Part shown: in pieces, positions 1,224-13,942 of the stretch
Layout of the letters: the number at the start of each line of letters is the position of its first letter
Position numbering within the stretch: the stretch's first letter is position 1
Source of the DNA: Verrucomicrobiota bacterium
GTDB taxonomy: Bacteria > Verrucomicrobiota > Verrucomicrobiia > Limisphaerales > CANJXF01
Direction of reading: 5' to 3'
Assembly (NCBI GenBank): GCA_038214755.1
Contig: JBBQRQ010000056.1
Coordinates: 1-32,509 of the forward strand
DNA: 32,509 bases
The notes under the pieces: model-generated
Seen by the model: the letters and a program-made list of their open reading frames with translations, nothing else
Databases searched by the model: none
Told to the model about the DNA's origin: nothing
Made by a program: the position numbers and the translations under genes

Positions 1224-1266
1224 GCCCGCGATTGGCGCGAGAAATTAAAAGCACTTCCTCGCCTTG

Positions 1267-2640
1267 TCATGGAATTTCTCGGACAGGTTTCGGCTCGTCG
1301 TATCCATGCGCCTTGGCCTGCCAGCCCAGCGCGAAAAGAAGCGTCCCGATGATTGCGCAACCGATCAAACAGGCAAAGCCAGCATCCCAACCCGAACCGG
1401 GATGTGTTCTCTCATAGTGCTGCACCAGTTTTCCCAAACCCCAACCGGAAAGAGTCGTGCTCGCGTAACCAAAAAGTCCGGTGAACCCCACGCTTGTCGC
1501 AGCGGCGCGTTTGGTGGCGAGGTTCGCGGCGGCGATGCCGATGAGACTTTGCGGACCGTAAATAAAAAATCCAGTCGCGCAAAGCAGGCCGGTGATGAGC
1601 AGTTCCGATTGCATTTGAATTTTCCAGAAAAGAAAAAGGGAAACGCCCGCCAGCGCCATGTAAACCAGGCATGCGCGCAAGGCGCGTCCGCCGAGAAACC
1701 GGTCGGTAATCCAGCCGCCGAGAAGCGAACCCAACAGACCAAAAACTTCGAAGCCAGCGATCATCCCCGCGGCGTGCATAATTTTGACGTGCTTGGCTTC
1801 CAGCAGCATCGTCGGACCCCAATCGAAGACAGCATAGCGAATCGCATAAACGAAGAAATTCGCCGTCGCGACCAGCCAGATATATTTATTCCGAAAAACT
1901 TTTTCGATGACGAAGGCTTTGAAATCTTCGCGCGATTCCTTTTGCGGCATTTCCACGTGCGATCCCTCGACTTCCGGCAAGCCAACCGACCCCGGCGTGT
2001 CCGGCAACATGAACCAGAGCACAACGGCAATAACGAGCGCGATGGCCGCCGGGATTAAAAAACAGAGCCGCCAGTTGGGCGCGAAAAGAATTCCGCTGAC
2101 CAGAAATCCGCAGAGCAGAACGATGAGAATGCTGCCGATGTTGTGCGACGAATTCCAGATGGAGAATTTCGTCGCGAATTGTTTTGGCGGAAACCAATGC
2201 GTCATCAATCGCGCGCACGGTGGAAAACCCATTCCTTGAAACCAGCCGTTCGCCATCCAGATCAGACCGAATGCGATGACTGCGGAACTGAGGCCGAAAC
2301 AGATATTGAGCAGTGCCGAAATCACCAGCGATACAGCCATGAAAGCGCGGGCATTGGCGCGGTCGGCGAGAAAACCATTGGCGAATTTGGAGATCCCGTA
2401 GAGAACGCCGTGCAGCGTGAGGAACAAACCGAGCTTCTCCTTGGTGATGCCAAGTTCTTTCCCCATGAGCGGCATGGCGATGCCGAGATTTTTGCGCACG
2501 AAATAAAAGGTGGCGTAACCGACAATGGAAAAAATCAGGACGCGTGTCTGCCAATGTCGAAATTTCGGTGCGAGTTCCGCGGGATCGGTCGATCTAACGG
2601 GCAACGCGGGTGCGGGCTTGAAGATGGAAAACAAATTCAT
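1267..2640 (-). CDS. MFS organophosphate:Pi antiporter, GlpT/PgtP/UhpC (OPA) family
   Basis: About 12 hydrophobic segments, with GYATFYFVRKN, NGWFQGMGFPPC, WNSSHNIG and FFIYGPQ motifs of GlpT/UhpT-type carriers. ATG at 2640 chosen; the ORF extends to 2655. Confidence 0.92.
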   Translation of the reverse strand: MNLFSIFKPAPALPVRSTDPAELAPKFRHWQTRVLIFSIVGYATFYFVRKNLGIAMPLMGKELGITKEKLGLFLTLHGVLYGISKFANGFLADRANARAFMAVSLVISALLNICFGLSSAVIAFGLIWMANGWFQGMGFPPCARLMTHWFPPKQFATKFSIWNSSHNIGSILIVLLCGFLVSGILFAPNWRLCFLIPAAIALVIAVVLWFMLPDTPGSVGLPEVEGSHVEMPQKESREDFKAFVIEKVFRNKYIWLVATANFFVYAIRYAVFDWGPTMLLEAKHVKIMHAAGMIAGFEVFGLLGSLLGGWITDRFLGGRALRACLVYMALAGVSLFLFWKIQMQSELLITGLLCATGFFIYGPQSLIGIAAANLATKRAAATSVGFTGLFGYASTTLSGWGLGKLVQHYERTHPGSGWDAGFACLIGCAIIGTLLFALGWQAKAHGYDEPKPVREIP

Positions 2641-2642
2641 CG

Positions 2643-3995
2643 TTACATCGTCCACACTCCACCCGGGCCAAAAATCCTGTCGAGGCAGGAATCCAAAACG
2701 CCCGCCCGCTTCGCCAAGTCGAGGATCGTGAAACGACGACGAATAAAATAAGCCTGAAGAAAACCGCGTCGCAGTCGCTCGCGTGAAATTCCGATTTGTT
2801 CTGGCTCACTTGGGGCACCCGCTGCGGCCAACATTTTTTTCAATTCAACGAAAGGCAGTAATTGTTTTTGCAGGCGCGGTTTTAGTTCGGGCCAGATTTT
2901 TTTAAGCAACCCCAATTGTTCTCGCAATTTGTCCGGCGAGATTTGTTTCGCGCGAGTCTCTTCAATGGCTTTGTCGGCGACATCTTTCTCACGAAAAAGT
3001 TGGCGGATCGTTTTCTCAAAGTCGTCGCGCAAGAAAATTTCGCAGTAGCGGTCGGCGTCGAGATTTTCAAGAGGCAATTCAAAAAGTTGTTCGTAGAGCG
3101 CGGCGACGGCGAGCGTGCCAATGCCGACTTTGAATCCATGAGAAGGCGCGGCGCCGTTGTGCGTGTGATGCTCCATGTCCCAAAGATGACTGAACTGATG
3201 CTCCGCGCCCGCCGCCGGACGGCTGGACTTGGCCCATTGCATGGCAAACCCGCCCATCATCAATCCTTCGGTGAGTTGTGTGATGGCGTTTTCTTCTCCC
3301 CGATTTGCGCCGCGCGGATCTTTCAAAGCATCGCGCAAACCGCCTTGCACAATATTCCACGCCTGTTCATCAATCGGCTCAACACCCAGCGCGTCGGCCA
3401 GCAACCAATCCGCTCCCGCCGTAATTTTCGCGAGCAAATCCGCGTAACCCGAAGCGGTCATTTCCGAAGGCGCGCCGCGAATAATTTCGATGTCAGCCAG
3501 AACCGCCCTTGGCGCGGGGCAATCGAAATTTAACTTGGAACCCTTGAAGGTGATCGATGCGCCGAACGCGGTGTAGCCATCCATCGACGCGGCGGTGCCG
3601 ACACAGAAGTAGGGGCGGCCCAGTCGATGCGCGGAAAATTTCACGAGGTCATTGATGGTGCCGGAGCCGATAGCGATGGGAACGGCGTCGTGCGCGCCGA
3701 GCGAACTTTGCAACTGCTCCACGAATTTGAATTCAGCGTAAAGTTTTGGGTCGGAAAAAATAAACGGCTCGCGCAATTTTTGCCCCGCATTAGCAAAGGC
3801 CAAAGCGACTGCTTTGCCGGCGACCTTAAAAGTGTTGTCATCGGACATAATCACGCCCTCGCGCGCGGGGAATTGTTGGCGAAAAATTTCCGGTGTTTTG
3901 CCCAAAACGTTTTTGCCAATTTCCAGAGCCTTTGTTTCGCGAGCGGCCCGCAATGCGTCGGCCAGGGAAATTTTTTCTGGAGGAATGGAAATCAT
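2643..3995 (-). CDS. sn-glycerol-1-phosphate dehydrogenase (AraM/EgsA-like, DHQS/Fe-ADH fold)
   Basis: GSGTINDLVK, TAASMDGYTAFGASI, ASGYADLLAKITAGADW, SRPAAGAEHQFSHLW and HGFKVGIG motifs. The start ATG at 3995 overlaps the upstream stop (ATGA). Confidence 0.88.
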   Translation of the reverse strand: MISIPPEKISLADALRAARETKALEIGKNVLGKTPEIFRQQFPAREGVIMSDDNTFKVAGKAVALAFANAGQKLREPFIFSDPKLYAEFKFVEQLQSSLGAHDAVPIAIGSGTINDLVKFSAHRLGRPYFCVGTAASMDGYTAFGASITFKGSKLNFDCPAPRAVLADIEIIRGAPSEMTASGYADLLAKITAGADWLLADALGVEPIDEQAWNIVQGGLRDALKDPRGANRGEENAITQLTEGLMMGGFAMQWAKSSRPAAGAEHQFSHLWDMEHHTHNGAAPSHGFKVGIGTLAVAALYEQLFELPLENLDADRYCEIFLRDDFEKTIRQLFREKDVADKAIEETRAKQISPDKLREQLGLLKKIWPELKPRLQKQLLPFVELKKMLAAAGAPSEPEQIGISRERLRRGFLQAYFIRRRFTILDLAKRAGVLDSCLDRIFGPGGVWTM

Positions 3996-4948
3996 TTGGC
4001 AGATTTTTTCTGATAATATTTTTTTATTTCTTGCCAGGCCACATCGGGATGATCGGTAGCGAAGGACATCAATCCGAGGTCCAGGAGTTGCGCGTAAACC
4101 GCCGGGTCGCCGGTGTAGGCCAGCGCTTGAAAAAGAATGTGGCGGGAGCGCAATTCCGCGCCGAGTTCTCGGATGAATTTCGGCGAAGGCGTGTAGGCGA
4201 ACGAATAGGTTTTGTCTTTGAGCGGACGGACATGAATCTGCAATTGCGTGATGCCCTCGAAATTTTCCTTTTTCAAAACTTCGATGCGGTCGCGTTTCGA
4301 TTTTTCGTCGCCCGACATCCAAAGCAGCGTGTCAGATTCCGGCACCAGCGTTTTCCATTCGCGGATGATTTCTGGTTTGGGCGAGGCGAGAATTACTTGC
4401 CGCGTGACCTCGTTGGATTTCACTTCGCGAGCAAGTTGTTTCAAGTCCACGTTCTTGATGTCGAGATAGAGATGACGCTCCGGTTTCCCGCGCATTGCCG
4501 CAAAGACTTCCGTCATTCTTGAAACATGGCGCGGGAGGAAGTCGTTGGTTTGCCAGACTCCGACATCGAGTTTACTCAACTCTGCGAACGTCAAATCTTT
4601 CACCCCTTTCTTCTTCAATTCTTCGCTCGCCCCTTTGACCACACGGCTGAAATCATCATCGTGAAACGCCACAATCACGCCGTCGCTCGTGGTGCGCAAA
4701 TCCGATTCGGGATACGTGCCTAATTTCCAGCCGAGTTCAAAAGCTTCGAGAGTATTCTCCGGGGCGAGCACGCCTGCGCCGCGATGACTCTGAATAATAA
4801 ATTTCTTAGGAGGAACATGACCGGTCACATTCCAGACGTTTTCGGATGAAGCGCTTGTTTCGGATTTTGAGGAAGCTTTTTCGTTTTGCGCGAGACAGGC
4901 GCAAGAAAAAATTCCTACGAACGCACTGAGGCAGAGGACGTTTTTCAT
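3992..4948 (-). CDS. Exported glycerophosphodiester phosphodiesterase (GDPD family)
   Basis: N-terminal signal peptide, SHRGAGVLAPENTLEAF, ESDLRTTSDGVIVAFHD, YLDIK and C-terminal ATDHP. Confidence 0.92.
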   Translation of the reverse strand: MKNVLCLSAFVGIFSCACLAQNEKASSKSETSASSENVWNVTGHVPPKKFIIQSHRGAGVLAPENTLEAFELGWKLGTYPESDLRTTSDGVIVAFHDDDFSRVVKGASEELKKKGVKDLTFAELSKLDVGVWQTNDFLPRHVSRMTEVFAAMRGKPERHLYLDIKNVDLKQLAREVKSNEVTRQVILASPKPEIIREWKTLVPESDTLLWMSGDEKSKRDRIEVLKKENFEGITQLQIHVRPLKDKTYSFAYTPSPKFIRELGAELRSRHILFQALAYTGDPAVYAQLLDLGLMSFATDHPDVAWQEIKKYYQKKSAK

Positions 4949-5196
4949 TTCTATATTTTACTTTTAATCCTGGGAGGAAATCGCCGGCGCAATATTTTTG
5001 GCAAATCGATGACGGCCACCAGAATGGGCATACATACCCAATATCGCCGGATGAATTGTTTTCGCGCTGCGCGGGGCGCAGCAGCGTAGCAGATTCAATC
5101 ACGACTTAGCATCGTGCCCCAACCGTGTGGCGACGGGAAGCGGACTGAAGTCCGTGCCCTTTGCGCCAGCAGCCTCCCTCGCCACTTCGTTCTGAT

Positions 5197-6201
5197 TTAA
5201 AAAATCAGCAGGTCCAGCAAACGAATTCCATGGTTGGCCAATTCCCAGCGACCGCTCCGGTTGGTGACCAACTTCCCGCACGGATTCCTTTTGTATTCTT
5301 TTTCATTCACCGACAGCAGCCGATACTTCGCCGAACCTTTTAGCTCGGACGCAGCGCGCGGGATGACTTGAAACGGCAGTCCATTGAAGTTGAGGACCAA
5401 TTCGTAGGCGGCAATTCCTTCTTTTTGCGCAAATGTATTTTCTTGAATCAACGGCGCGTAACGTTTCAGCCAGGGAAATTTTTTGGCTCGCACCACCACG
5501 CGGCACAATTCGGTTTGGTTTTGCACCGCGGTCAGCAAATTAAATTTCCCTCTCAGTTCATGGTCGTCCAACAGGGTGGCGCGCGGATCGATTCCAATCA
5601 TATTCTGCCCGTTCCATTCGCCATGATCGTCGCGCTGGCCAGGAAAATTTTTTTTATGCCAGGCGGAAAAACGTTCGTTGATAAGAAAGTCCAATTCAAA
5701 ATGGACATGCGCGCGCTCTTTGGAAATCCGCTCGCGCGTGTTGCTGGTGCGGCCCATGAGAGCGACAGCCTCCCCCGATTTCACGCTCGAACCCATTTTC
5801 AAATCGGAACGAATCTCGGAGAGATGGGCGTAAAGGGAATAAATTTCCAACCCATCAATACGATGTTTCAACACAAGATAATTTCCATAATTGGAAAGCG
5901 ACGGCTTCTTGTTCAAGTAGGCCACGGTTCCGTCGGCGGTCGCCAGCACCGGGTCTTTTGGTTCGCCTTTTTTGTCGCGTTCAAGGCAACGCACATCCAA
6001 GCCTTCGTGAAATTGTCCGCCGTCGGAACGAACGCAACCGAACGTCCCGCTCGTCCACGGTTTGCCCGTCGTGCCGACAAAATATTTTTCTTGAGCGCCG
6101 GGGTAAAACAAGGCGCGATTTGCGGTGGGCAGGTGAAATGTTTCCGCCGCGAGGAACTGCGTGAGTCCGAGGGAAAAAGTTAAAAAAAGTTTGCGTATCA
6201 C
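5197..6201 (-). CDS. M23 family metallopeptidase, exported
   Basis: Signal peptide, HEGLD (HxxxD), YGNYLVLKH, YSLYAHL and HVH (HxH) zinc motifs. The GTG start overlaps the upstream stop. Confidence 0.9.
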   Translation of the reverse strand: MIRKLFLTFSLGLTQFLAAETFHLPTANRALFYPGAQEKYFVGTTGKPWTSGTFGCVRSDGGQFHEGLDVRCLERDKKGEPKDPVLATADGTVAYLNKKPSLSNYGNYLVLKHRIDGLEIYSLYAHLSEIRSDLKMGSSVKSGEAVALMGRTSNTRERISKERAHVHFELDFLINERFSAWHKKNFPGQRDDHGEWNGQNMIGIDPRATLLDDHELRGKFNLLTAVQNQTELCRVVVRAKKFPWLKRYAPLIQENTFAQKEGIAAYELVLNFNGLPFQVIPRAASELKGSAKYRLLSVNEKEYKRNPCGKLVTNRSGRWELANHGIRLLDLLIF

Positions 6202-6740
6202 AAACCGAGTAAGTTTTTCTTTCGCAGTTTGTCGGAAGTATTATTGAGTCCGCGAACGATGCGAATCGCTTCTTCACGCGTGGCGTCAGGAGTGAAGGTG
6301 AAGACGCCATCGCTGATGCGCCGCAAAATTATGGGCGCGGCGAGCCAACGCCGGTCGGTTGCTTCCGTCATGATCGCGAAACGTTTTCCTTTGTTGGACG
6401 CGCTGACTGTGTCCAACACAAATGTCCCGTGATCATCGAATTGAATTTGAATAGAAAATCCGCCGACGTTATCCACCAACATCGCTTTGATCACATCGCG
6501 TTCATCGAGAAACGAATCCTTGATCACGTTGACCAGAACGGGCGCAGCGCGAAAAATCGGCACTGGCTCGGCGCGGCCTGTCGTGTCCCCGGCCGCTTCG
6601 AGATGAAAGCGGATGGTGGTTAATTCTTTTTTTTGTTTGCGCGATTCCGCCGCTTCCCGTTTTTCTTGAGCGGACTGGCATCCAGCGAAAAGCAAAGCCG
6701 CGAGCAAATAGGTATTGAAGGTGACCAGACGAATCTTCAT
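6198..6740 (-). CDS. Lipoprotein with a stand-alone SecD/SecF P1 head-like domain
   Basis: Lipobox LFAGC. The segment IQIQFDDHG...SASNKGKRFAI...AAPII...ISDG...EEAIRIVRGLN resembles the SecD periplasmic head. Confidence 0.7.
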   Translation of the reverse strand: MKIRLVTFNTYLLAALLFAGCQSAQEKREAAESRKQKKELTTIRFHLEAAGDTTGRAEPVPIFRAAPVLVNVIKDSFLDERDVIKAMLVDNVGGFSIQIQFDDHGTFVLDTVSASNKGKRFAIMTEATDRRWLAAPIILRRISDGVFTFTPDATREEAIRIVRGLNNTSDKLRKKNLLGL

Positions 6741-7112: not shown

Positions 7113-7919
7113 TCACGCTCTGCGAATAAATTTCGCAGCAATCCAACCCGCCAAAACAACTCCGGAAAGAATCAGCCAGCCATAACGTTCGTTGCCGTAG
7201 AGAAGCGGGAAATGATTGCTAATCATAATAAACACAACGGGCACCGCCATGAAAGTGTTGTGGCGTGAAGCATTTTTGGCGCGGCGAGCTTCGTCTTGAT
7301 TCGGAGTTTTTCCCTCCTTGAGCGCGGCGACCATGCGGCGTTGCGCGGGTAGAATTCGCATCCAGACATTCGCGACCATAATCGTGCCGAACATCGCGCC
7401 AAGTTGCAGATACGCGGCGCGGCCACTGAAATAGCGATGGAGAAACCAGTTGAGCGCGAGAATCAAAATGAAGGCGACAATGGGAAAAGCGATTTCATTT
7501 CTGACCAATTTACCGAGAACCAGATCGTAAATAAGCCAACCGCCGATGAGAAGTCCGAGACTAAGGCCGATGGCGGCGTGATTGGAAATGGGCGATTCCT
7601 CGACGCTGATCATCAAGCCGCCCATATAATAAACCACGCCGAACAACAGGAATCCGCTGAGCCACGTCAGCGCCGCTTCCCAGCGAAACCAGTGCAGAAG
7701 TTTCGGCATGACTTGGGGGACTTTCTGTTTTTCCACACGATAAAATCCGCCGCTGTGAACCATCCACACTGGTTCGCCGGCAGTGTCATTTTTTTCCAGT
7801 TCCGCGAAACGCCCATCGAGCCAGGTAAAAAAATAAGTCGTGCCGACCCACATGATTCCAGCGAAGACGTGGACCCAGCGCAGAATGGCGTCGAGCCAGG
7901 TGGATATTTCAGCGTTCAT
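7113..7919 (-). CDS. PuuD-like membrane protein (urate oxidase N-terminal domain only)
   Basis: LRWVHVFAGIMWVG, WMVHSGGFY, LHWFRWEA, GAMFGTIMVANVW..ILPAQR and SRHNTFMAVPVVFIMISNHFP. No C-terminal CxxCH. Confidence 0.82.
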   Translation of the reverse strand: MNAEISTWLDAILRWVHVFAGIMWVGTTYFFTWLDGRFAELEKNDTAGEPVWMVHSGGFYRVEKQKVPQVMPKLLHWFRWEAALTWLSGFLLFGVVYYMGGLMISVEESPISNHAAIGLSLGLLIGGWLIYDLVLGKLVRNEIAFPIVAFILILALNWFLHRYFSGRAAYLQLGAMFGTIMVANVWMRILPAQRRMVAALKEGKTPNQDEARRAKNASRHNTFMAVPVVFIMISNHFPLLYGNERYGWLILSGVVLAGWIAAKFIRRA

Positions 7920-8070: not shown

Positions 8071-11000
8071 TCATCCGAGCGCAGCCAGAGCAGTTTCGAC
8101 GTGCTGTTTTTTCGCCTGCCAATCCGTCAACCGCTTTTGATGTTCTTCCAAAACGGCGGGCGGAACTTTTTGAGTGAACGCGGGGTTGTTTAATTTCTGT
8201 TCGACCTTCACGATTTCGGCGTTGTTTTTTTCCAGTTCTTTTTTCAGACGGACTTTTTCGGCTTCGACATCAATCAAGCCTTCGAGGGGTAAAAACAATT
8301 CTCCGAGGGGCGAAAGCGCCGAAGGCGTTCCTTTCGTCGCCGTGAAAGTGGGATTCACTTCGAGCGATTCCGCGTTGAGCAGGATTTTCAAAACTTCGGC
8401 GTCGTGTGATTTGAAATCACGCGACGGTTTGAAAATAAATTTGACGCGTTTGCTGGAAGGAATGTTTCCTTCGCGCTGAAGGTTGCGCCCGTGAGTGACG
8501 AGTTCGTATTTCGCATCGACCAATCGCGCGTCGCTTTCATTGAGGCGGTAGTGGGATTTGAAATCGTCGTCGAAGGGTTTCGGCCACGGCGCGAACATGA
8601 TCGAATCGCCGCCCTGCCCTTTCGGCAAATCGCGATTGAAATTCATGCCGTGCCACAGTTCCTCAGTGATGAACGGAATGAACGGATGAAAAAGCCGCAG
8701 CGTGTTCGAGAGAATAAAATCCATCACGGCCAGCGTGTTGATTTTTTGAGTCGTTGAATCGTTGACTGGTTGAATCGTTGAACCGGCTTCCGATTTAACG
8801 TTTTCACGTTTTAACGATTCAACATTGTGTGACAACACCGCTTTGCTCGCTTCGATATACCAATCGCAATACTCGCTCCAAAAGAAACGGTAAAGCGCGG
8901 TGGTGGCTTCGCTGAATTTGTATTCGGCCAGTGCGCCGGAAACTTCGCGAATGGCTTGATCGAGTTTCAGCAAAATCCATTGGTCGTCGCCGGTGAGAAG
9001 TTCAGGACGAATTTCGCCTTCAGTTTCCCATGTGCTGGCGATATTCTGTCGGCTGTTCTGGTTCTCGTCTGCGCTATTTTCTGCCGACAGAATGTCGGCA
9101 GCACTTTGGTTCTGCATCTGGCGGAAGCGGCAGGCGTTCCAAAGTTTGTTACCGAAGTTGCGACCGAGTTCGACATCTTTTTCATCAAACAAAACATCCT
9201 GTCCGATGGGTGCGCTGCGCATCGTGCCGAAACGCAAAGCGTCCGCGCCGTATTTGGCGATGAGTTCGAGCGGGTCGGGCGAATTGCCGAGCGTCTTCGA
9301 CATTTTGCGACCCTGTTTGTCGCGAATGATGCCGGTGAAATAAACGTTCTTGAACGGCAGATCGCCCATGAATTCGTAGCCCGCCATGATCATGCGCGCG
9401 ACCCAGAAGAAAATAATGTCCGGCCCGGTGACGAGATCGGTCGTCGGATAAAAAGCTTTGAGCGTCGGCGTTTTTTCCGGCCAACCCATCGTGGCGAACG
9501 GCCAGAGCCAGGAACTGAACCAAGTGTCGAGGACGTCGGGGTCTTGCTCCCAGTCGGCGCCGGGAGACTCAATCTGGCAACGCGTCAAAAATTGTTCCGA
9601 GTTGACGTCCGCCAAAACGTCGGACAATTTAATTGATGAGACCGGTGTAGGCCGGGTGACCAACTTCTCTTCACGGAGATGCGTTCCCGGAGACTTGATA
9701 CCATCGGTCTCGTTTTTTTGTACTTCAACCGCTTGATGATCATAGAGCAGCCGGCCATCTTCGCGTTCCTTCACCACAATTTTAACGCGGTGCAATCGGC
9801 CTTGGTAGCGATAGCCCGCGAAAAACAGATGGACACATTTCCAAGGCGGAGCGGGCGGATCATGCGGGAGACTAACCAAATGAATTGCCCCTTCAATTAA
9901 CATGGGCAAGTGCGGCAGGAGTTTCACATTGGCAACGCCGAAATTTGAAAAAGCATGTTCGAGACTCGAGGCCCGCACCTCAATTTCCCAACCGGTATCT
10001 CGATTTAAGAATGAACGATTGAGCAGGTGGTGGGTTTCTGCCCAATGCCAAGCGGACGCACGCAATTCTTTTATATTTTTGCCGGTGATTTCGCTGTCAG
10101 AAAAATCCGGTATCTCCAAATCTTTTTTTAAATTATCCGCCGCAGTTTTCGCGTACCAAACCGGAATCCGATGCCCCCACCAAAGCTGACGACTGATGCA
10201 CCAGTCCTGAATGTTCGTCAGCCAATGATCGTAAACTTTCGCCCAGCGCTGCGGATGAAAGCGCATTTTGGTTGTCGCCCGACTCGAATGAAGTTCTTGT
10301 GTCCAGCCTGGTCCCGGTGATCCGATTTGACAACGGACCAAAAGCGAGGGATTGACCACGGCAACAAGATCAGCCAACTTAATTGCGGAGACCGATGCAG
10401 GCCAGGGGGCAAAGCTTCCCGAAACGGAAGCCTCCTCTGGAGAATACTTACCGTCGGTCTCTATTTTTTTTACCTGCACGGTTTGGTGATCATATAAGCG
10501 TAATCGGTTGTGAAATTCCTTTACGGTGAATTTGACGCTGAACAACGTGTGGCCCAGGTGGATCGCAGCGTAAAAAACATGCACACACACGATTTCACGC
10601 GCCGGAGGGTCGTGCGGCACAGTGGCCACCCTCACCGCATGACGCAGCAAAGCTGGCAGTGACGGAACCAGTTTTATGTTTGCCAATCCCTTGTTGGAAA
10701 AAGCGTGTTCCAAACTCGACTGTTGCACCGTGATGTCGAAACCCGCGTCCAAGTTTGGGAAATCGCTATTCAGAAAACCGTGTTCTTCCGCAAAACGCCA
10801 AGCCTTGGCGCGAATTTCTGATGCGCTTTGGCCGGAGATCGCGTGCCAATCCTGTTTGATGATGGGAATGATTTTCTCAGCCGCCTCATGCCATCGGGAG
10901 TTATGCCAGACGGGAATCGTAACCTCCATTCCGTACGGCTTGTCGGAATCAGCGCCCTGAATAGCCGCCTCCTCGTTCTGCTCCACGCACTCCTTGGATT

Positions 11001-12252
11001 CCTTCACCACCGGATATTTCAAAAACCATTGCTCGCTCAGGCGCGGTTCAATCGGCACGTCGGCGCGTTGACTGTAACCGACGTTGTTTTCGTAAGGCTT
11101 TTCTTCGACGAGCGCGCCGAGTTCGCGCAAACGATCCACCGCTTCATTTCGCGCCTCGAAACGGTCCAGACCGGCGAGCGATTCGCCCGCCAAATCGTTC
11201 ATCGTCCCGTTCGGATTCATGATGTCGATGAGCGGGAGTTTGTGGCGCGCGCCAATCTCGAAATCGGCTTTGTCGTGGGCGGGCGTCACCTTGAGCACGC
11301 CGGTGCCGAATTCAAAATCGACCTGTTCATCGCCAATGATGGGAATGAGTTTTTGCTCGTGCGGAATCTGAATCGGCAGCGGACGAATAATATGTTTGCC
11401 GATGAGATGCGCGTAACGCGTGTCTTTCGGATTCACGGCGACGGCGGTGTCGCCGGGAATCGTTTCAGGCCGCGTTGTGGCGATGGTGAGCCAGATGCGT
11501 CCTTGATCGTCGACTTCCGCGCCGCGTCTTTTGTCCTTCGTAGCAGCCAACGTGAGTTGGCTCTGACTTTTCTCGGAAGGAATATCAGCGGACTCATGTC
11601 CGCTGCTACCAGTAGCGTCTGCAACCTGAACTTTGAAGTGATACATGAAACCTTTTTGCGGTTTCATTTCGACTTCTTCGTCGCTAAGCGCGGTTTGCGA
11701 AACAGGACACCAATTCACCATTCGTTTGCCGCGATAGATGAGTCCCTTCTTGTAGAGATCGACGAATACGCGCTGCACGTGGCGCACGTAGTCGGCGTCC
11801 ATCGTAAAACGCTCGCGCGTCCAGTCGCACGAGCAACCAAGCTTTTTGAGTTGTTCGATGATGATACCGCCGTGCTTTTCCTTCCACGTCCACACACGCT
11901 TGATGAATTCCTCCCGCCCGATGTCGCGCTTGGATTTTTTTTCTTCCTTCCAAATCTGTTTGGACACCATGCCCTCGGTGGCGATCCCGGCGTGATCGGT
12001 GCCGGGGAGCCAGAGAACTTCCTTGCCGTCCATGCGCGCTTTGCGACTGAGAATGTCCTGGATGGTGTTGTTGAGGACATGGCCCATGTGGAGCATGCCA
12101 GTGACATTCGGCGGCGGAATGACGATGGAATAGGCGGGGCGTTTTTCACTGACGCGCGTTGGATCGGCGACAAAACATTTTTGCTCCAGCCAAAATCGAT
12201 ACCATTTTTCCTCCACGGATTGAGGCTCATAGGCTTTGGGAATTTCAGACAT
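8071..12252 (-). CDS. valS: Valyl-tRNA synthetase (about 1393 aa) with multiple in-frame insertions
   Basis: PPPNVTGMLHMGH (HIGH), ATTRPETIPGD, DWCISRQLWWGHRIP, DPDVLDTWFSS, KMSKT, YCDWYIE and a C-terminal coiled coil. Start at MSEIPKAYEP (12252). Confidence 0.98.
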   Translation of the reverse strand: MSEIPKAYEPQSVEEKWYRFWLEQKCFVADPTRVSEKRPAYSIVIPPPNVTGMLHMGHVLNNTIQDILSRKARMDGKEVLWLPGTDHAGIATEGMVSKQIWKEEKKSKRDIGREEFIKRVWTWKEKHGGIIIEQLKKLGCSCDWTRERFTMDADYVRHVQRVFVDLYKKGLIYRGKRMVNWCPVSQTALSDEEVEMKPQKGFMYHFKVQVADATGSSGHESADIPSEKSQSQLTLAATKDKRRGAEVDDQGRIWLTIATTRPETIPGDTAVAVNPKDTRYAHLIGKHIIRPLPIQIPHEQKLIPIIGDEQVDFEFGTGVLKVTPAHDKADFEIGARHKLPLIDIMNPNGTMNDLAGESLAGLDRFEARNEAVDRLRELGALVEEKPYENNVGYSQRADVPIEPRLSEQWFLKYPVVKESKECVEQNEEAAIQGADSDKPYGMEVTIPVWHNSRWHEAAEKIIPIIKQDWHAISGQSASEIRAKAWRFAEEHGFLNSDFPNLDAGFDITVQQSSLEHAFSNKGLANIKLVPSLPALLRHAVRVATVPHDPPAREIVCVHVFYAAIHLGHTLFSVKFTVKEFHNRLRLYDHQTVQVKKIETDGKYSPEEASVSGSFAPWPASVSAIKLADLVAVVNPSLLVRCQIGSPGPGWTQELHSSRATTKMRFHPQRWAKVYDHWLTNIQDWCISRQLWWGHRIPVWYAKTAADNLKKDLEIPDFSDSEITGKNIKELRASAWHWAETHHLLNRSFLNRDTGWEIEVRASSLEHAFSNFGVANVKLLPHLPMLIEGAIHLVSLPHDPPAPPWKCVHLFFAGYRYQGRLHRVKIVVKEREDGRLLYDHQAVEVQKNETDGIKSPGTHLREEKLVTRPTPVSSIKLSDVLADVNSEQFLTRCQIESPGADWEQDPDVLDTWFSSWLWPFATMGWPEKTPTLKAFYPTTDLVTGPDIIFFWVARMIMAGYEFMGDLPFKNVYFTGIIRDKQGRKMSKTLGNSPDPLELIAKYGADALRFGTMRSAPIGQDVLFDEKDVELGRNFGNKLWNACRFRQMQNQSAADILSAENSADENQNSRQNIASTWETEGEIRPELLTGDDQWILLKLDQAIREVSGALAEYKFSEATTALYRFFWSEYCDWYIEASKAVLSHNVESLKRENVKSEAGSTIQPVNDSTTQKINTLAVMDFILSNTLRLFHPFIPFITEELWHGMNFNRDLPKGQGGDSIMFAPWPKPFDDDFKSHYRLNESDARLVDAKYELVTHGRNLQREGNIPSSKRVKFIFKPSRDFKSHDAEVLKILLNAESLEVNPTFTATKGTPSALSPLGELFLPLEGLIDVEAEKVRLKKELEKNNAEIVKVEQKLNNPAFTQKVPPAVLEEHQKRLTDWQAKKQHVETALAALG
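8746..8823. repeat. Inverted octamer arrays (TTGAATCG / GATTCAAC) translated inside valS
   Basis: ttgagtcg ttgaatcg ttgactgg ttgaatcg ttgaaccg ... gatttaac gttttcac gttttaac gattcaac; protein VESLKRENVKSEAGSTIQPVNDSTTQ. Confidence 0.8.
9032..9104. repeat. REP-like doublet (family B) in frame inside valS
   Basis: gtgctggcgatattctgtcggc ... ctgccgacagaatgtcggcagcac; near-identical arm at intergenic 14149-14172. Confidence 0.85.
9712..10089 (-). other. LPD3-like domain inserted in ValRS (copy 2)
   Basis: N.DTGWEIEV..SSLEHA...LP.LIEGA...VHLFFA......HRVKIVVKE..DGRLLYDH, resembling large-polyvalent-protein domain 3 (recognised by eye). Confidence 0.7.
10465..10839 (-). other. LPD3-like domain inserted in ValRS (copy 1)
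   Basis: Aligns without gaps to copy 2; 66/130 identical residues by hand count. Confidence 0.7.
11540..11609. repeat. REP doublet (GTAG family A variant) in frame inside the valS editing-domain region
   Basis: gtagcagccaacgtgagttggct ... agcggactcatgtccgctgctac; each arm is GTAG plus a hairpin; protein GSSGHESADIPSEKSQSQLTLAAT. Confidence 0.82.
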
Positions 12253-12286
12253 AGTTAAACTGTAGAAACGCGGAGGCGCAGAGAAA

Positions 12287-13942
12287 TCATCTTTGTAAGA
12301 GCGCGTATTCCAAGGAATCCTCCAATGCTTGCAAGCTGGCCTCGATAATATTTTCGCTGACACCCACGGTACCCCATTCATTTTTGCCATCGGTAGATTC
12401 TATCAGAACACGGGTCCTGGCAGCCGTGCCGGGACTGGTCAAAGAAAACAGATCGTCGAGTGCTGGTTTTAGAAGGTCATTTCTTTCGCCAAGTATCCGC
12501 CGCGTTTCCCTCACTCCTGATTGGAAGGAATCACCTAAAATTCGAACTTTATAATCGGTGAGTCGAATTTTTTTGAGTTGAGGGAAGGACTTAACTAAGG
12601 CGGCCCGCAGAGCGGCGTCTAAAGCGTTCACTGGCCCCTGACCTTCAGCGACTTCGTCATGAACCACTTTTCCTACGCGCACACAGACGCTCGCGGCGCA
12701 GACAGACTGTTTAGCATCGCGCCGCATCGAAACGTGATACTTCTCTACCGTGAAGAATAGTTCCGGATTGTGATCCAATATACCGCGAATCAATAACGCC
12801 ATCGAAGCCTCGGCTGCCTCATATTCATACCCGTCGTGCTCACGTTGTTTGATGGTGCTGAGAATTTGTTTCAGTTCCGGAGTCTCGTTCGTGATTTTGA
12901 AACCCAGTTCCTGCGCCTTCATCACGATGTTGCTGCGGCCCGACAAATCGCTGACCAAGACGGTGCGTTCGTTTCCAACTAACTCCGGTTCGATGTGCTC
13001 ATAGCTGGCGGAAAGTTTTTGCACCGCATTTACGTGGGTTCCTCCCTTGTGCGAAAATGCGGCCGAACCCACCCACGGCAATCGCGGATTGTGCCGGATG
13101 TTGGCAATCTCATCGACGAATTGGGAAAGCTCTTTCAATCGGCGCAATGACGATATTGGCACGCAACTTTTTTTTAACTTCAGCGTCACGCAGGGAATCA
13201 CGCTGGTCAAATTGCAATTGCCCGTGCGCTCGCCGTAGCCATTGATTGTTCCTTGCACATGGACCGCGCCAGCGTCCAGCGCCGCCAACGCGTTAGCCAC
13301 ACCCAGACCAATGTCGTCGTGAGTGTGGATACCGATTTTACAATTTAATTGACTCCTGGCGAATGCGGTGATGTTCGCAATTTCCTTGGGCAAACAGCCG
13401 CCGTTGGTATCGCACAGCACGACAAGATCCGCCCCCGCTTTTTCCGCCGCCTGCCATGTGGCCAAAGCGTATTCCGGATCAAGTTTATATCCGTCGAAAC
13501 AATGTTCCGCGTCGTAGATGACAAACTTCCCGTGGTCTTTCACGAACCGAACCGTGTCGCTAATCATCGCGAGATTTTCTTCCGGCGTACAGCGCAGAAC
13601 TTCCTTTACGTGCAACATGGAAGTCTTGCCATAGATCGTCACCACAGGCGTGGCCGCGTCGATGAGCAAACGAACTTGATCATCCTTCTTCACCGAAATG
13701 TTTTTGCGTCGAGTGGAACCGAACGCCGCCAGCCGCGCGTTTTTGAATTTTCTTTTTTTCGCCTGGGCAAAAAATTCAATGTCTTTCGGATTCGATCCCG
13801 GCCAGCCGCCTTCAATGTAATGAACGCCAAAAGAATCTAATTTTTCGGCGATGCGAAGCTTGTCCGCCACCGAAAAATTCACGCCTTCACCCTGACTGCC
13901 GTCGCGCAAGGTCGTGTCGTAGATTTCAACTTCAGGTTTCAT
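12287..13942 (-). CDS. cimA: Citramalate synthase (LeuA/CimA family)
   Basis: YDTTLRDGSQGEG, IEGGWPGSNPKD, YDAEHCFDGYK, LCDTNGG, HTHDD, GYGERTGNCNL, AFSHKGGTH and WGTVGVSENIIEAS. Start at MKPEVE. Confidence 0.93.
   Translation of the reverse strand: MKPEVEIYDTTLRDGSQGEGVNFSVADKLRIAEKLDSFGVHYIEGGWPGSNPKDIEFFAQAKKRKFKNARLAAFGSTRRKNISVKKDDQVRLLIDAATPVVTIYGKTSMLHVKEVLRCTPEENLAMISDTVRFVKDHGKFVIYDAEHCFDGYKLDPEYALATWQAAEKAGADLVVLCDTNGGCLPKEIANITAFARSQLNCKIGIHTHDDIGLGVANALAALDAGAVHVQGTINGYGERTGNCNLTSVIPCVTLKLKKSCVPISSLRRLKELSQFVDEIANIRHNPRLPWVGSAAFSHKGGTHVNAVQKLSASYEHIEPELVGNERTVLVSDLSGRSNIVMKAQELGFKITNETPELKQILSTIKQREHDGYEYEAAEASMALLIRGILDHNPELFFTVEKYHVSMRRDAKQSVCAASVCVRVGKVVHDEVAEGQGPVNALDAALRAALVKSFPQLKKIRLTDYKVRILGDSFQSGVRETRRILGERNDLLKPALDDLFSLTSPGTAARTRVLIESTDGKNEWGTVGVSENIIEASLQALEDSLEYALLQR

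Follow-up and report, generated by a model that had tools for sequence, protein, structure and literature searches.

In positions 1 to 32,509 of contig JBBQRQ010000056.1 of the Verrucomicrobiota bacterium assembly GCA_038214755.1 (hereafter the window, i.e. the whole stretch of DNA that was analyzed, at its full length), we found a minus-strand operon in which the genes for a GDPD-family phosphodiesterase (P0001), an AraM/EgsA-type dehydrogenase (P0002) and a carrier of the organophosphate:phosphate antiporter (OPA) family (P0003) follow each other in a row, with the open reading frames (ORFs) read at the coordinates of Table 1. We put it at about an even chance that this operon imports sn-glycerol-1-phosphate (G1P) and oxidizes it to dihydroxyacetone phosphate (DHAP). 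As judged from sequence, it is probably a glp-type scavenging system built on an AraM/EgsA-type dehydrogenase and a carrier clade of its own.

In the proposed scheme, the secreted GDPD would cut glycerophosphodiesters outside the cytoplasm, with deacylated phosphatidylglycerol, poly(glycerol phosphate) of the lipoteichoic acid (LTA) type and archaeal polar lipids as candidate substrates. The antiporter would swap the released glycerol phosphate for internal phosphate, and the dehydrogenase would oxidize the sn-1 enantiomer, which is not usable by GlpD, to DHAP with NAD(P)+, the DHAP then passing to glycolysis. A GlpD and a HAD-IIA phosphatase encoded together on another contig (C64) may handle the sn-3 enantiomer and the release or overflow of phosphate. 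We infer the direction of the reaction, its stereochemistry and the substrates of GDPD and carrier from sequence comparison; glycerol phosphate is favored because it is what the nearest characterized relatives of the GDPD, the carrier, the AraM-like enzyme and the GlpD of related loci act on. That the operon would serve as a nutrient-scavenging trait is suggested by the coupling of an importer to a secreted hydrolase, the repressors in related loci, the lack of a lipid-synthesis partner in the genome and the patchy distribution of the dehydrogenase, all of which are described below.

The GDPD and dehydrogenase genes overlap in an ATGA at 3995-3992 (gccaaATGAtttcc), where the GDPD stop codon (3994-3992) lies on the dehydrogenase ATG (3995-3993). 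The dehydrogenase gene in turn ends in a TAA at 2645-2643, which is separated by only two nucleotides ('cg', 2642-2641) from the carrier ATG starting at 2640. An earlier reading of this DNA, made from the sequence alone and here called the sequence-only reading, had described three tightly coupled genes with these two junctions, and reading the junctions confirmed it; its family calls (GDPD, AraM/EgsA-type dehydrogenase and OPA antiporter) were upheld by Pfam and NCBIfam.

The dehydrogenase P0002 scores 105.8 bits on Fe-ADH_2 (PF13685; cut-off 28), and its top NCBIfam family is G1P dehydrogenase (G1PDH, EC 1.1.1.261; NF002022, 171 bits), with glycerol dehydrogenase at 33 bits. Its best solved relatives by sequence are 9h4x (E 2.3e-38), the Methanocaldococcus jannaschii entries 4rfl and DHAP-bound 4rgq (E 4e-24) and 5fb3, and glycerol dehydrogenases trail at E 1e-8 or worse. 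A profile made from 23 family members gave E 2.6e-57 for 9h4x versus 8e-13 for the glycerol dehydrogenase 1jpu. The entry 9h4x carries the title 'Ni2+ dependent glycerol-1-phosphate dehydrogenase AraM from Bacillus subtilis', and it was also the top Foldseek match (E 7e-22, TM score 0.74 by query and 0.83 by target) of an AlphaFold (AF2) model built on the alignment of the 23 family members (mean predicted local distance difference test score, pLDDT, 92; predicted TM score, pTM, 0.91), followed by 3ce9 and then by the M. jannaschii G1PDH. Sequence, profile and Foldseek comparison thus all lie closest to AraM, in keeping with the AraM/EgsA type assigned by the sequence-only reading, and both sequence and predicted fold place P0002 in the G1PDH clade with B. 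subtilis AraM as its nearest solved relative.

In the alignment of the 23 family members, the five residues D186, R259, H266, H270 and H286 do not vary, and each is matched by an identical residue in AraM and the archaeal G1PDHs; some of them are presumably metal or phosphate ligands. The motifs GSGT.xD, TAxSxDG, GxxDxxxK, SRPASGxEH and HG are common to P0002 and AraM, and the SRPASG.EH motif retained in P0002 is that of AraM and the archaeal G1PDHs alike. The family is large, as 6937 of the 8000 scored candidates fell at E <= 0.001. Its top 120 members are 60-75% identical and 439-514 amino acids (aa) long, and those that carry a name are called 'sn-glycerol-1-phosphate dehydrogenase', except for a few labelled '3-dehydroquinate synthase' or otherwise.

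The carrier P0003 matches MFS_1 at 154 bits. Among the NCBIfam models, those for the PgtP subfamily (342.9 bits), UhpC (335.8) and GlpT (319.9) come out on top, each under its own cut-off, and P0003 falls well below the GlpT equivalog level (TIGR00712, 319.9 versus 632.55; NF008433, 311.3 versus 748). In a tree of 56 OPA proteins, P0003 and 48 carriers linked to related dehydrogenases make up one clade with a support of 99 in the Shimodaira-Hasegawa-like approximate likelihood ratio test (SH-aLRT), to the exclusion of GlpT, UhpT and UhpC of Escherichia coli and of a paralogue from the genome of P0003 itself, found on contig C88; the tree was made by a quick method, and the tool flagged long outgroup branches. 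On the glpT model the C88 paralogue, which has 44% identity to E. coli GlpT, reaches 432 bits, compared to 320 for P0003. The columns of E. coli GlpT R45, R269, Y266, Y362 and Y393 are nevertheless invariant in all 49 carriers of the clade, H165 is kept in 48 of them, and the K80 column holds K or R throughout; R45, R269, H165 and K80 are presumably binding-site residues of GlpT. At the positions of GlpT Y270 and Y362 the carriers have Y or F and Y, respectively, where UhpT has I and F. Since the GlpT binding-site columns are conserved, P0003 is, on the evidence of its sequence, an intact OPA antiporter with a GlpT-like type of pocket, in an orthogroup apart from GlpT itself.

The GDPD P0001 matches PF03009 at 78 bits (cut-off 23.6) over profile positions 1-243 of 244. 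Compared with its best solved relative, 5t91 (E 1.3e-11), it has identical letters at HRG, PEN, E.D and HD, and it resembles GlpQ distantly (GlpQ-type model NF008354, E 8.6e-5). Its N-terminus, MKNVLCLSAFVGIFSCACLAQ, reads as a signal-peptide-like leader, which was judged directly from the letters, and a similar hydrophobic leader opens most of the 23 GDPDs in the cluster of neighboring genes from related loci. P0001 is thus a predicted secreted phosphodiesterase; the sequence-only reading had called it exported, and it is the leader-like N-terminus that speaks for this. The other GDPD of this genome, a UgpQ-like protein encoded on contig C94, is only 24% identical to P0001.

The surroundings of the dehydrogenase gene were compared across genomes, with one genome per species. 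At least 589 stretches were found to encode a relative, of which the best 80, at 53-65% identity, were kept. These loci are distributed over Verrucomicrobiota (34), Bacteroidota (33), Planctomycetota (7), Acidobacteriota (2), Lentisphaerota (1) and an Actinomycetota-labelled bin (1), with two unassigned. Neighboring ORFs were clustered and the clusters named by Pfam and NCBIfam, after which one hidden Markov model per cluster was used to rescan the loci with score thresholds. An OPA carrier gene was found downstream of the dehydrogenase gene, on the same strand and within 1.5 kb, in 50 of the 80 loci, or 50 of the 73 with enough sequence. A HAD-IIA phosphatase gene lies within 5 kb in 51 loci and a GDPD gene in 32, the latter being directly upstream, on the same strand and at most 400 nt away, in 26. 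GlpD-like flavoenzymes were found in 22 loci; these have the domains DAO and DAO_C, and their best NCBIfam models are those of glycerol-3-phosphate (G3P) dehydrogenase, just below cut-off. Regulators of the SorC type (24 loci) and the DeoR type (9 loci), i.e. repressor types typical of catabolic sugar-phosphate operons, were also present. The exact triplet of GDPD, dehydrogenase and carrier occurs in 19 loci, in Verrucomicrobiota and Bacteroidota, and at least one of carrier, GDPD, HAD-IIA and GlpD-like gene in 68. In two genomes of the same class as the window, the order is SorC, dehydrogenase, carrier, HAD and GlpD. Examples of cultured organisms with the cassette are Pedobacter, Sphingobacterium, Dysgonomonas, Gaoshiqia, Singulisphaera and Opitutaceae EW11. 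The triplet arrangement is more than chance, and the synteny search that the sequence-only reading had called for returned a conserved cassette.

The genome itself (5.1 Mb in 175 contigs, 96.96% complete) gave no match to PcrB/GGGPS (PF01884), the geranylgeranylglyceryl phosphate (GGGP) synthase, with a control that was positive in seven out of 14 named genomes. No full-length PcrB was found in 151 genomes of the phylum either: 23 of them gave marginal partial matches, confined to profile positions of about 160-220, and only two of these 23 are among the 31 genomes that bear the dehydrogenase. The biosynthetic partner for which the sequence-only reading had proposed a search was thus found neither in this genome nor, at full length, in the phylum, and a biosynthetic ether-lipid role was rejected for this genome, as no PcrB/GGGPS match was found at this level of completeness. 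Furthermore, neither the dihydroxyacetone kinase Dak1 nor a true GlpK was found in the genome (the best score on the GlpK model was 131.7 bits, against a cut-off of 590), so that a route by free glycerol or dihydroxyacetone is not supported and a phosphorylated substrate must come by import.

The only GlpD gene and the only HAD-IIA gene of the genome are adjacent to each other at the start of contig C64 (C64:189-2560), and score like the cassette-linked orthologues on the profiles of these (723.9 and 434.9 bits). The GlpT-like carrier gene on C88 lies at the very start of its contig as well (C88:182-1477). The two contig ends share no k-mers of 15-31 nt; the C64 and C88 genes could adjoin across an assembly gap as a separate G3P module. 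The larger cassette that is usual in related loci is thus split in this genome, and a distinct role for the gene set of the window is plausible because a second, more GlpT-like carrier and the sole GlpD are encoded elsewhere.

The distribution of the dehydrogenase is patchy, as it was found in 31 out of the 151 genomes of the phylum and in 14 out of 79 genera. In most of the 31 genomes the enzyme is of a more remote subfamily (about 40% identity), and among 18 loci of this kind that were examined the carrier was found in none, with HAD-IIA, GDPD or weak GlpD-like or DeoR matches nearby in a few. Next to the subfamily of the 80 loci, a second one of 425-450 aa, at about 36-44% identity, was seen in 16 loci (L099-L114) from 15 genomes; other classes of the phylum commonly have it, mostly with no carrier, GDPD or GlpD neighbors.

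The sequence-only reading had interpreted the triplet as a mirror image of the glp pathway. G1P scavenging holds up in substance, given the conserved cassette and the lack of a GGGPS match. The separateness of such a pathway does not, since related loci combine the dehydrogenase with HAD-IIA phosphatase and GlpD-like genes. A stereo-complete glycerol-phosphate operon fits better than a separate mirror-image pathway, and the wording is preferred because in the relatives the dehydrogenase normally shares its operon with GlpD. Somewhat more tentatively than the reading for the window, and at slightly less than an even chance, we propose that the PVC group (Planctomycetes, Verrucomicrobia and Chlamydiae), Bacteroidota and Acidobacteriota carry a stereo-complete cassette, in which an AraM-type enzyme would serve sn-G1P catabolism beside a GlpD-type enzyme for the sn-3 or L-configured form, together with an OPA clade of its own and sometimes a secreted GDPD which can release sn-G1P from phosphatidylglycerol head groups, LTA or archaeal lipids. 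The AraM-type enzyme of such a cassette would perhaps also take other D-configured polyol phosphates.

Several observations weigh against G1P import and oxidation as the function of the window operon. P0002 misses the equivalog cut-off of NF002022 (413 bits), and its specificity for G1P would be transferred by analogy from AraM, to which the structural alignment shows only 25% identity. It also matches the model of a haloarchaeal glycolaldehyde reductase (NF053832) at 21 bits; this enzyme is reportedly a paralogue of G1PDH, so that the substrate can change within the family. NAD-linked oxidation of glycerol phosphate is thermodynamically uphill, hence the flavin-linked GlpD of the classical pathways, and the scheme gives no clear task to HAD-IIA, a frequent partner. 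To our knowledge, all characterized GDPDs release sn-G3P. GlpQ of B. subtilis is unable to release G1P from LTA (PMC7086022). As regards the related loci, 12 of the 80 have none of the four partners, i.e. carrier, GDPD, HAD-IIA and GlpD-like gene. A Pfam scan of 39 neighboring ORFs in 12 loci (11 of these 12, without L078, plus L064, which does have a GDPD) found no shared alternative theme; inositol monophosphatase-family genes occurred in two loci, and RpiB, a DeoC-type aldolase and a proline dehydrogenase once each. In 11 of the 80 loci the dehydrogenase gene is co-directional with a ribulokinase-like kinase and/or a polyol carrier of the RbtT/DalT/CsbX family, and these loci are interleaved with the OPA-linked ones within one orthogroup (FastTree; an 83-row group with a local support of 98).

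The ribulokinase-like kinases score 478 and 644 bits on NCBIfam, against a cut-off of 428, and the RbtT/DalT/CsbX-family transporter of the major facilitator superfamily (MFS) scores 556 against 375. FGGY kinases were seen in L008, L024, L066, L071, L079 and L080, and the polyol carriers in L025, L043, L051, L065, L071, L074, L079 and L080, their genes forming a run in one direction with those of the AraM-like dehydrogenase and a HAD-IIA phosphatase. This run recalls AraB, AraL and AraM of the B. subtilis ara operon, which we take to be adjacent there. A conserved trio of kinase, phosphatase and dehydrogenase is suggested.

It is on these loci that the best-surviving alternative builds, although we still consider it unlikely. 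According to it, the cassette would be for a D-configured polyol phosphate with a longer chain, such as D-ribitol-5-phosphate (Rbo5P) or erythritol phosphate, e.g. from teichoic acids of the ribitol type. The AraM-like enzyme would then be a polyol-phosphate dehydrogenase and the L-configured form would fall to the GlpD-like protein, just as it falls to EryB in erythritol catabolism. The co-directional kinases and polyol carriers, and their nesting among the OPA-linked loci, speak for this, and so do the SorC-type regulators and GlpD-like genes, which mark erythritol loci too. It has fewer grounds in the window, which holds no kinase, polyol carrier or RpiB, and the kinase and polyol-carrier contexts are a minority among the related loci. 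GDPD, GlpT-like carrier and AraM all favor a three-carbon substrate, and the GlpT-type residues at positions 270 and 362, as opposed to those of UhpT, are kept in the carriers. Furthermore, cleavage of poly(ribitol phosphate) by a GDPD is not known to us. Biochemically, the alternative gains from two relations. AraB of E. coli phosphorylates ribitol to Rbo5P (bioRxiv 10.64898/2026.07.27.741123), and sn-G1P is D-glycerol-3-phosphate (PMC7086022), which would give it the same local configuration as the omega-phosphates of D-polyols. D-configured polyol phosphates in general could therefore be substrates of the enzyme.

A second alternative, which we hold to be clearly less probable still, is that the operon carries out ordinary sn-G3P scavenging of the GlpQ/GlpT type, with the dehydrogenase working reductively from DHAP to G1P, either for a G1P-containing product or for glycerol. 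In the latter branch the HAD-IIA phosphatase would complete the formation of glycerol as an electron sink or osmolyte, analogous to Gpd/Gpp of yeast. Apart from the carrier, HAD-IIA is indeed the commonest partner of the dehydrogenase (51 of the 80 loci). The characterized G1PDHs are biosynthetic and DHAP reduction is their favored direction (PMC4244643), and G1P can be used by PlsY and PlsC (PMC13400652). Against a reductive role stand the missing GGGPS partner in the genome, as well as the translationally coupled genes for an importer and a secreted hydrolase and the catabolic-type repressors of the relatives, which point to uptake and breakdown. A GlpD oxidizing G3P beside a DHAP reductase encoded in the same operon would also be futile, and the patchy spread over genomes and genera fits an accessory nutrient trait rather than a core step of lipid synthesis. 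The last alternative, namely that the dehydrogenase acts on unphosphorylated glycerol, or an alcohol released by the GDPD, after HAD-IIA has dephosphorylated the imported glycerol phosphate, can draw on the frequent HAD-IIA neighbor, the fold common to glycerol dehydrogenases and the clade member 3ce9 of the Protein Data Bank, deposited as 'glycerol dehydrogenase', but is very improbable given that dihydroxyacetone would be a dead end without Dak1 and GlpK, that the family profile lies far closer to G1PDH than to glycerol dehydrogenase, that the SRPASG.EH motif is kept and that the HAD-IIA gene lies outside the operon in this genome.

Comparison with known systems sets the proposed G1P scavenging operon apart from each of them. 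B. subtilis AraM, a proven G1PDH, has the same fold, clade and motifs as P0002, and the relatives' loci have HAD-IIA and in some cases a ribulokinase-like kinase, as AraL and AraB in the ara operon (with the adjacency that we assume above). However, P0002 is longer (450 aa, compared to 395 residues in the chain of 9h4x, with the additional helices around residues 305-378), lies under the equivalog cut-off and comes from a genome without a PcrB/GGGPS match. Moreover, its gene is coupled to those of an importer and a secreted phosphodiesterase, and this suggests the opposite direction to AraM, i.e. a catabolic and not a biosynthetic one. With the glpTQ/glpD system of E. coli, the operon shares a phosphodiesterase gene close to an OPA gene and the conserved binding-site columns of GlpT, and related loci add a GlpD-like gene and repressors of the DeoR/SorC type. 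The logic would also be the same, from release outside via antiport to DHAP. It differs in that the carrier clade stands apart from GlpT, the GDPD is only distantly GlpQ-like and an NAD(P)-type AraM-like enzyme is part of the operon. Unlike in the classical glp regulon, there is no true GlpK in the genome and no match to SorC or DeoR profiles, and GlpD occurs once, on C64.

The erythritol pathway of Brucella and other Rhizobiales comprises the kinase EryA, the GlpD-like EryB and the SorC-type EryD. Related loci resemble it in that they combine a SorC-type regulator with a GlpD-like flavoenzyme, to which a minority add an FGGY kinase. The window, in contrast, lacks kinase, isomerase and regulator, and the AraM-like enzyme, OPA carrier and GDPD have no place in the erythritol system. 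GpxB and UgpB, the G1P/G3P-binding proteins of ATP-binding cassette (ABC) systems in marine Phaeobacter, have the same proposed role, in which G1P would supply bacteria with carbon or phosphorus, but are substrate-binding proteins and thereby of a type unrelated to the MFS antiporter found here (PMC12718374).

The remaining features of the window are listed in Table 1. A terminator-like hairpin lies between the carrier stop and carB; the scan found 12 terminator-like sites versus 11.4 expected from shuffles, i.e. no enrichment. In the intergenic region upstream of the GDPD gene, the presumed promoter/operator region, the scan found neither a sigma-70-like site on the minus strand nor a terminator-like site. 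No SorC or DeoR regulator was found in the window, nor in the genome by profiles derived from the neighbors. The M23 peptidase gene upstream of the operon, which the sequence-only reading had speculatively credited with assisting it, was dropped as a partner, since a tblastn search with the M23 protein gave a match in none of the 80 related loci.

Table 1. Features of the operon and its surroundings in the window.
Feature	Position	Strand	Details
GDPD-family phosphodiesterase	3992..4948 (ORF 3995-4948, stop codon 3992-3994)	-	P0001, 318 aa; PF03009, N-terminus
AraM/EgsA-type NAD(P)-dependent dehydrogenase	2643..3995 (ORF 2646-3995)	-	P0002, 450 aa; PF13685, NF002022, 9h4x
Organophosphate:phosphate antiporter (OPA, MFS)	1267..2640 (ORF 1270-2640)	-	P0003, 457 aa; NCBIfam, tree
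Terminator-like hairpin and T-run, between carrier stop and carB	1225..1241	-	tentative, from position
Presumed promoter/operator region, 5' of GDPD gene	4949..5196	-	248-nt intergenic gap between M23 gene stop and GDPD start
Lipoprotein-like ORF	6198-6740	-	180 aa; SecDF_P1_head 26.5 bits, just under cut-off 27
Membrane protein	7113-7919	-	268 aa; Urate_ox_N 289 bits, no NCBIfam family
Valyl-tRNA synthetase ORF	8071-12390	-	1439 aa

Neither the lipoprotein-like ORF nor the Urate_ox_N protein had a tblastn match in any of the 80 related loci. The valyl-tRNA synthetase is presumably some 500 aa above the usual length. It contains LPD3 (PF18798, large polyvalent protein-associated domain 3) in two stretches, at 95.5 bits, the best of which covers residues 771-883 between the tRNA-synt_1 pieces and the anticodon-binding domain, and its translation shows two similar segments, each with SSLEHAFSN...PHDPP...LYDHQ. 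A duplicated domain of mobile-element type within an essential synthetase is unusual.

The phosphatidylglycerol head group is G1P. Archaeal lipids have the same compound as their backbone, and type I LTA has it as its repeating unit (PMC7086022). Because of its presence in these three sources, G1P is expected to be abundant in sediments, soils and guts. G1P supports the growth of a marine bacterium for which two ABC binding proteins were identified, and in that 2025 PNAS paper, which identifies uptake proteins only, as far as its accessible part goes, G1P recycling is called unexplored (PMC12718374). The accessible part of the paper names no intracellular G1P-oxidizing enzyme, and in the supplement file 'dehydrogenase' occurs once (chloroacetaldehyde dehydrogenase) and 'iron-containing' not at all (PMC12718374). 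Bacterial AraM has been assigned to 'a few bacteria' (PMC7852524) and bacterial G1PDH described as occurring 'notably within the Bacillus genus' (PMC13400652), and in the accessible parts of two other papers bacterial homologues are listed for phylogeny only (PMC6431249, PMC5059525). In the literature searched, from which subscription journals are largely absent, neither this cassette nor a G1PDH with a catabolic role was found to be described.

A family of thousands in a catabolic context contrasts with the view, held in discussions of the lipid divide, of bacterial G1PDH as rare or centred on Bacillus. If the proposed function is true, the cassette is a candidate for the step inside the cell that is missing from bacterial recycling of G1P, and it would give the 'archaeal' enzyme of the lipid divide its first catabolic role and account for the wide occurrence of G1PDH homologues among bacteria that do not form ether lipids. 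The cassette also points to a GDPD clade with a possible LTA-degrading activity which GlpQ lacks. If the function is confirmed, the gene set would serve to trace G1P turnover in metagenomes, and bacterial G1PDH homologues would have to be read otherwise in arguments about the lipid divide.

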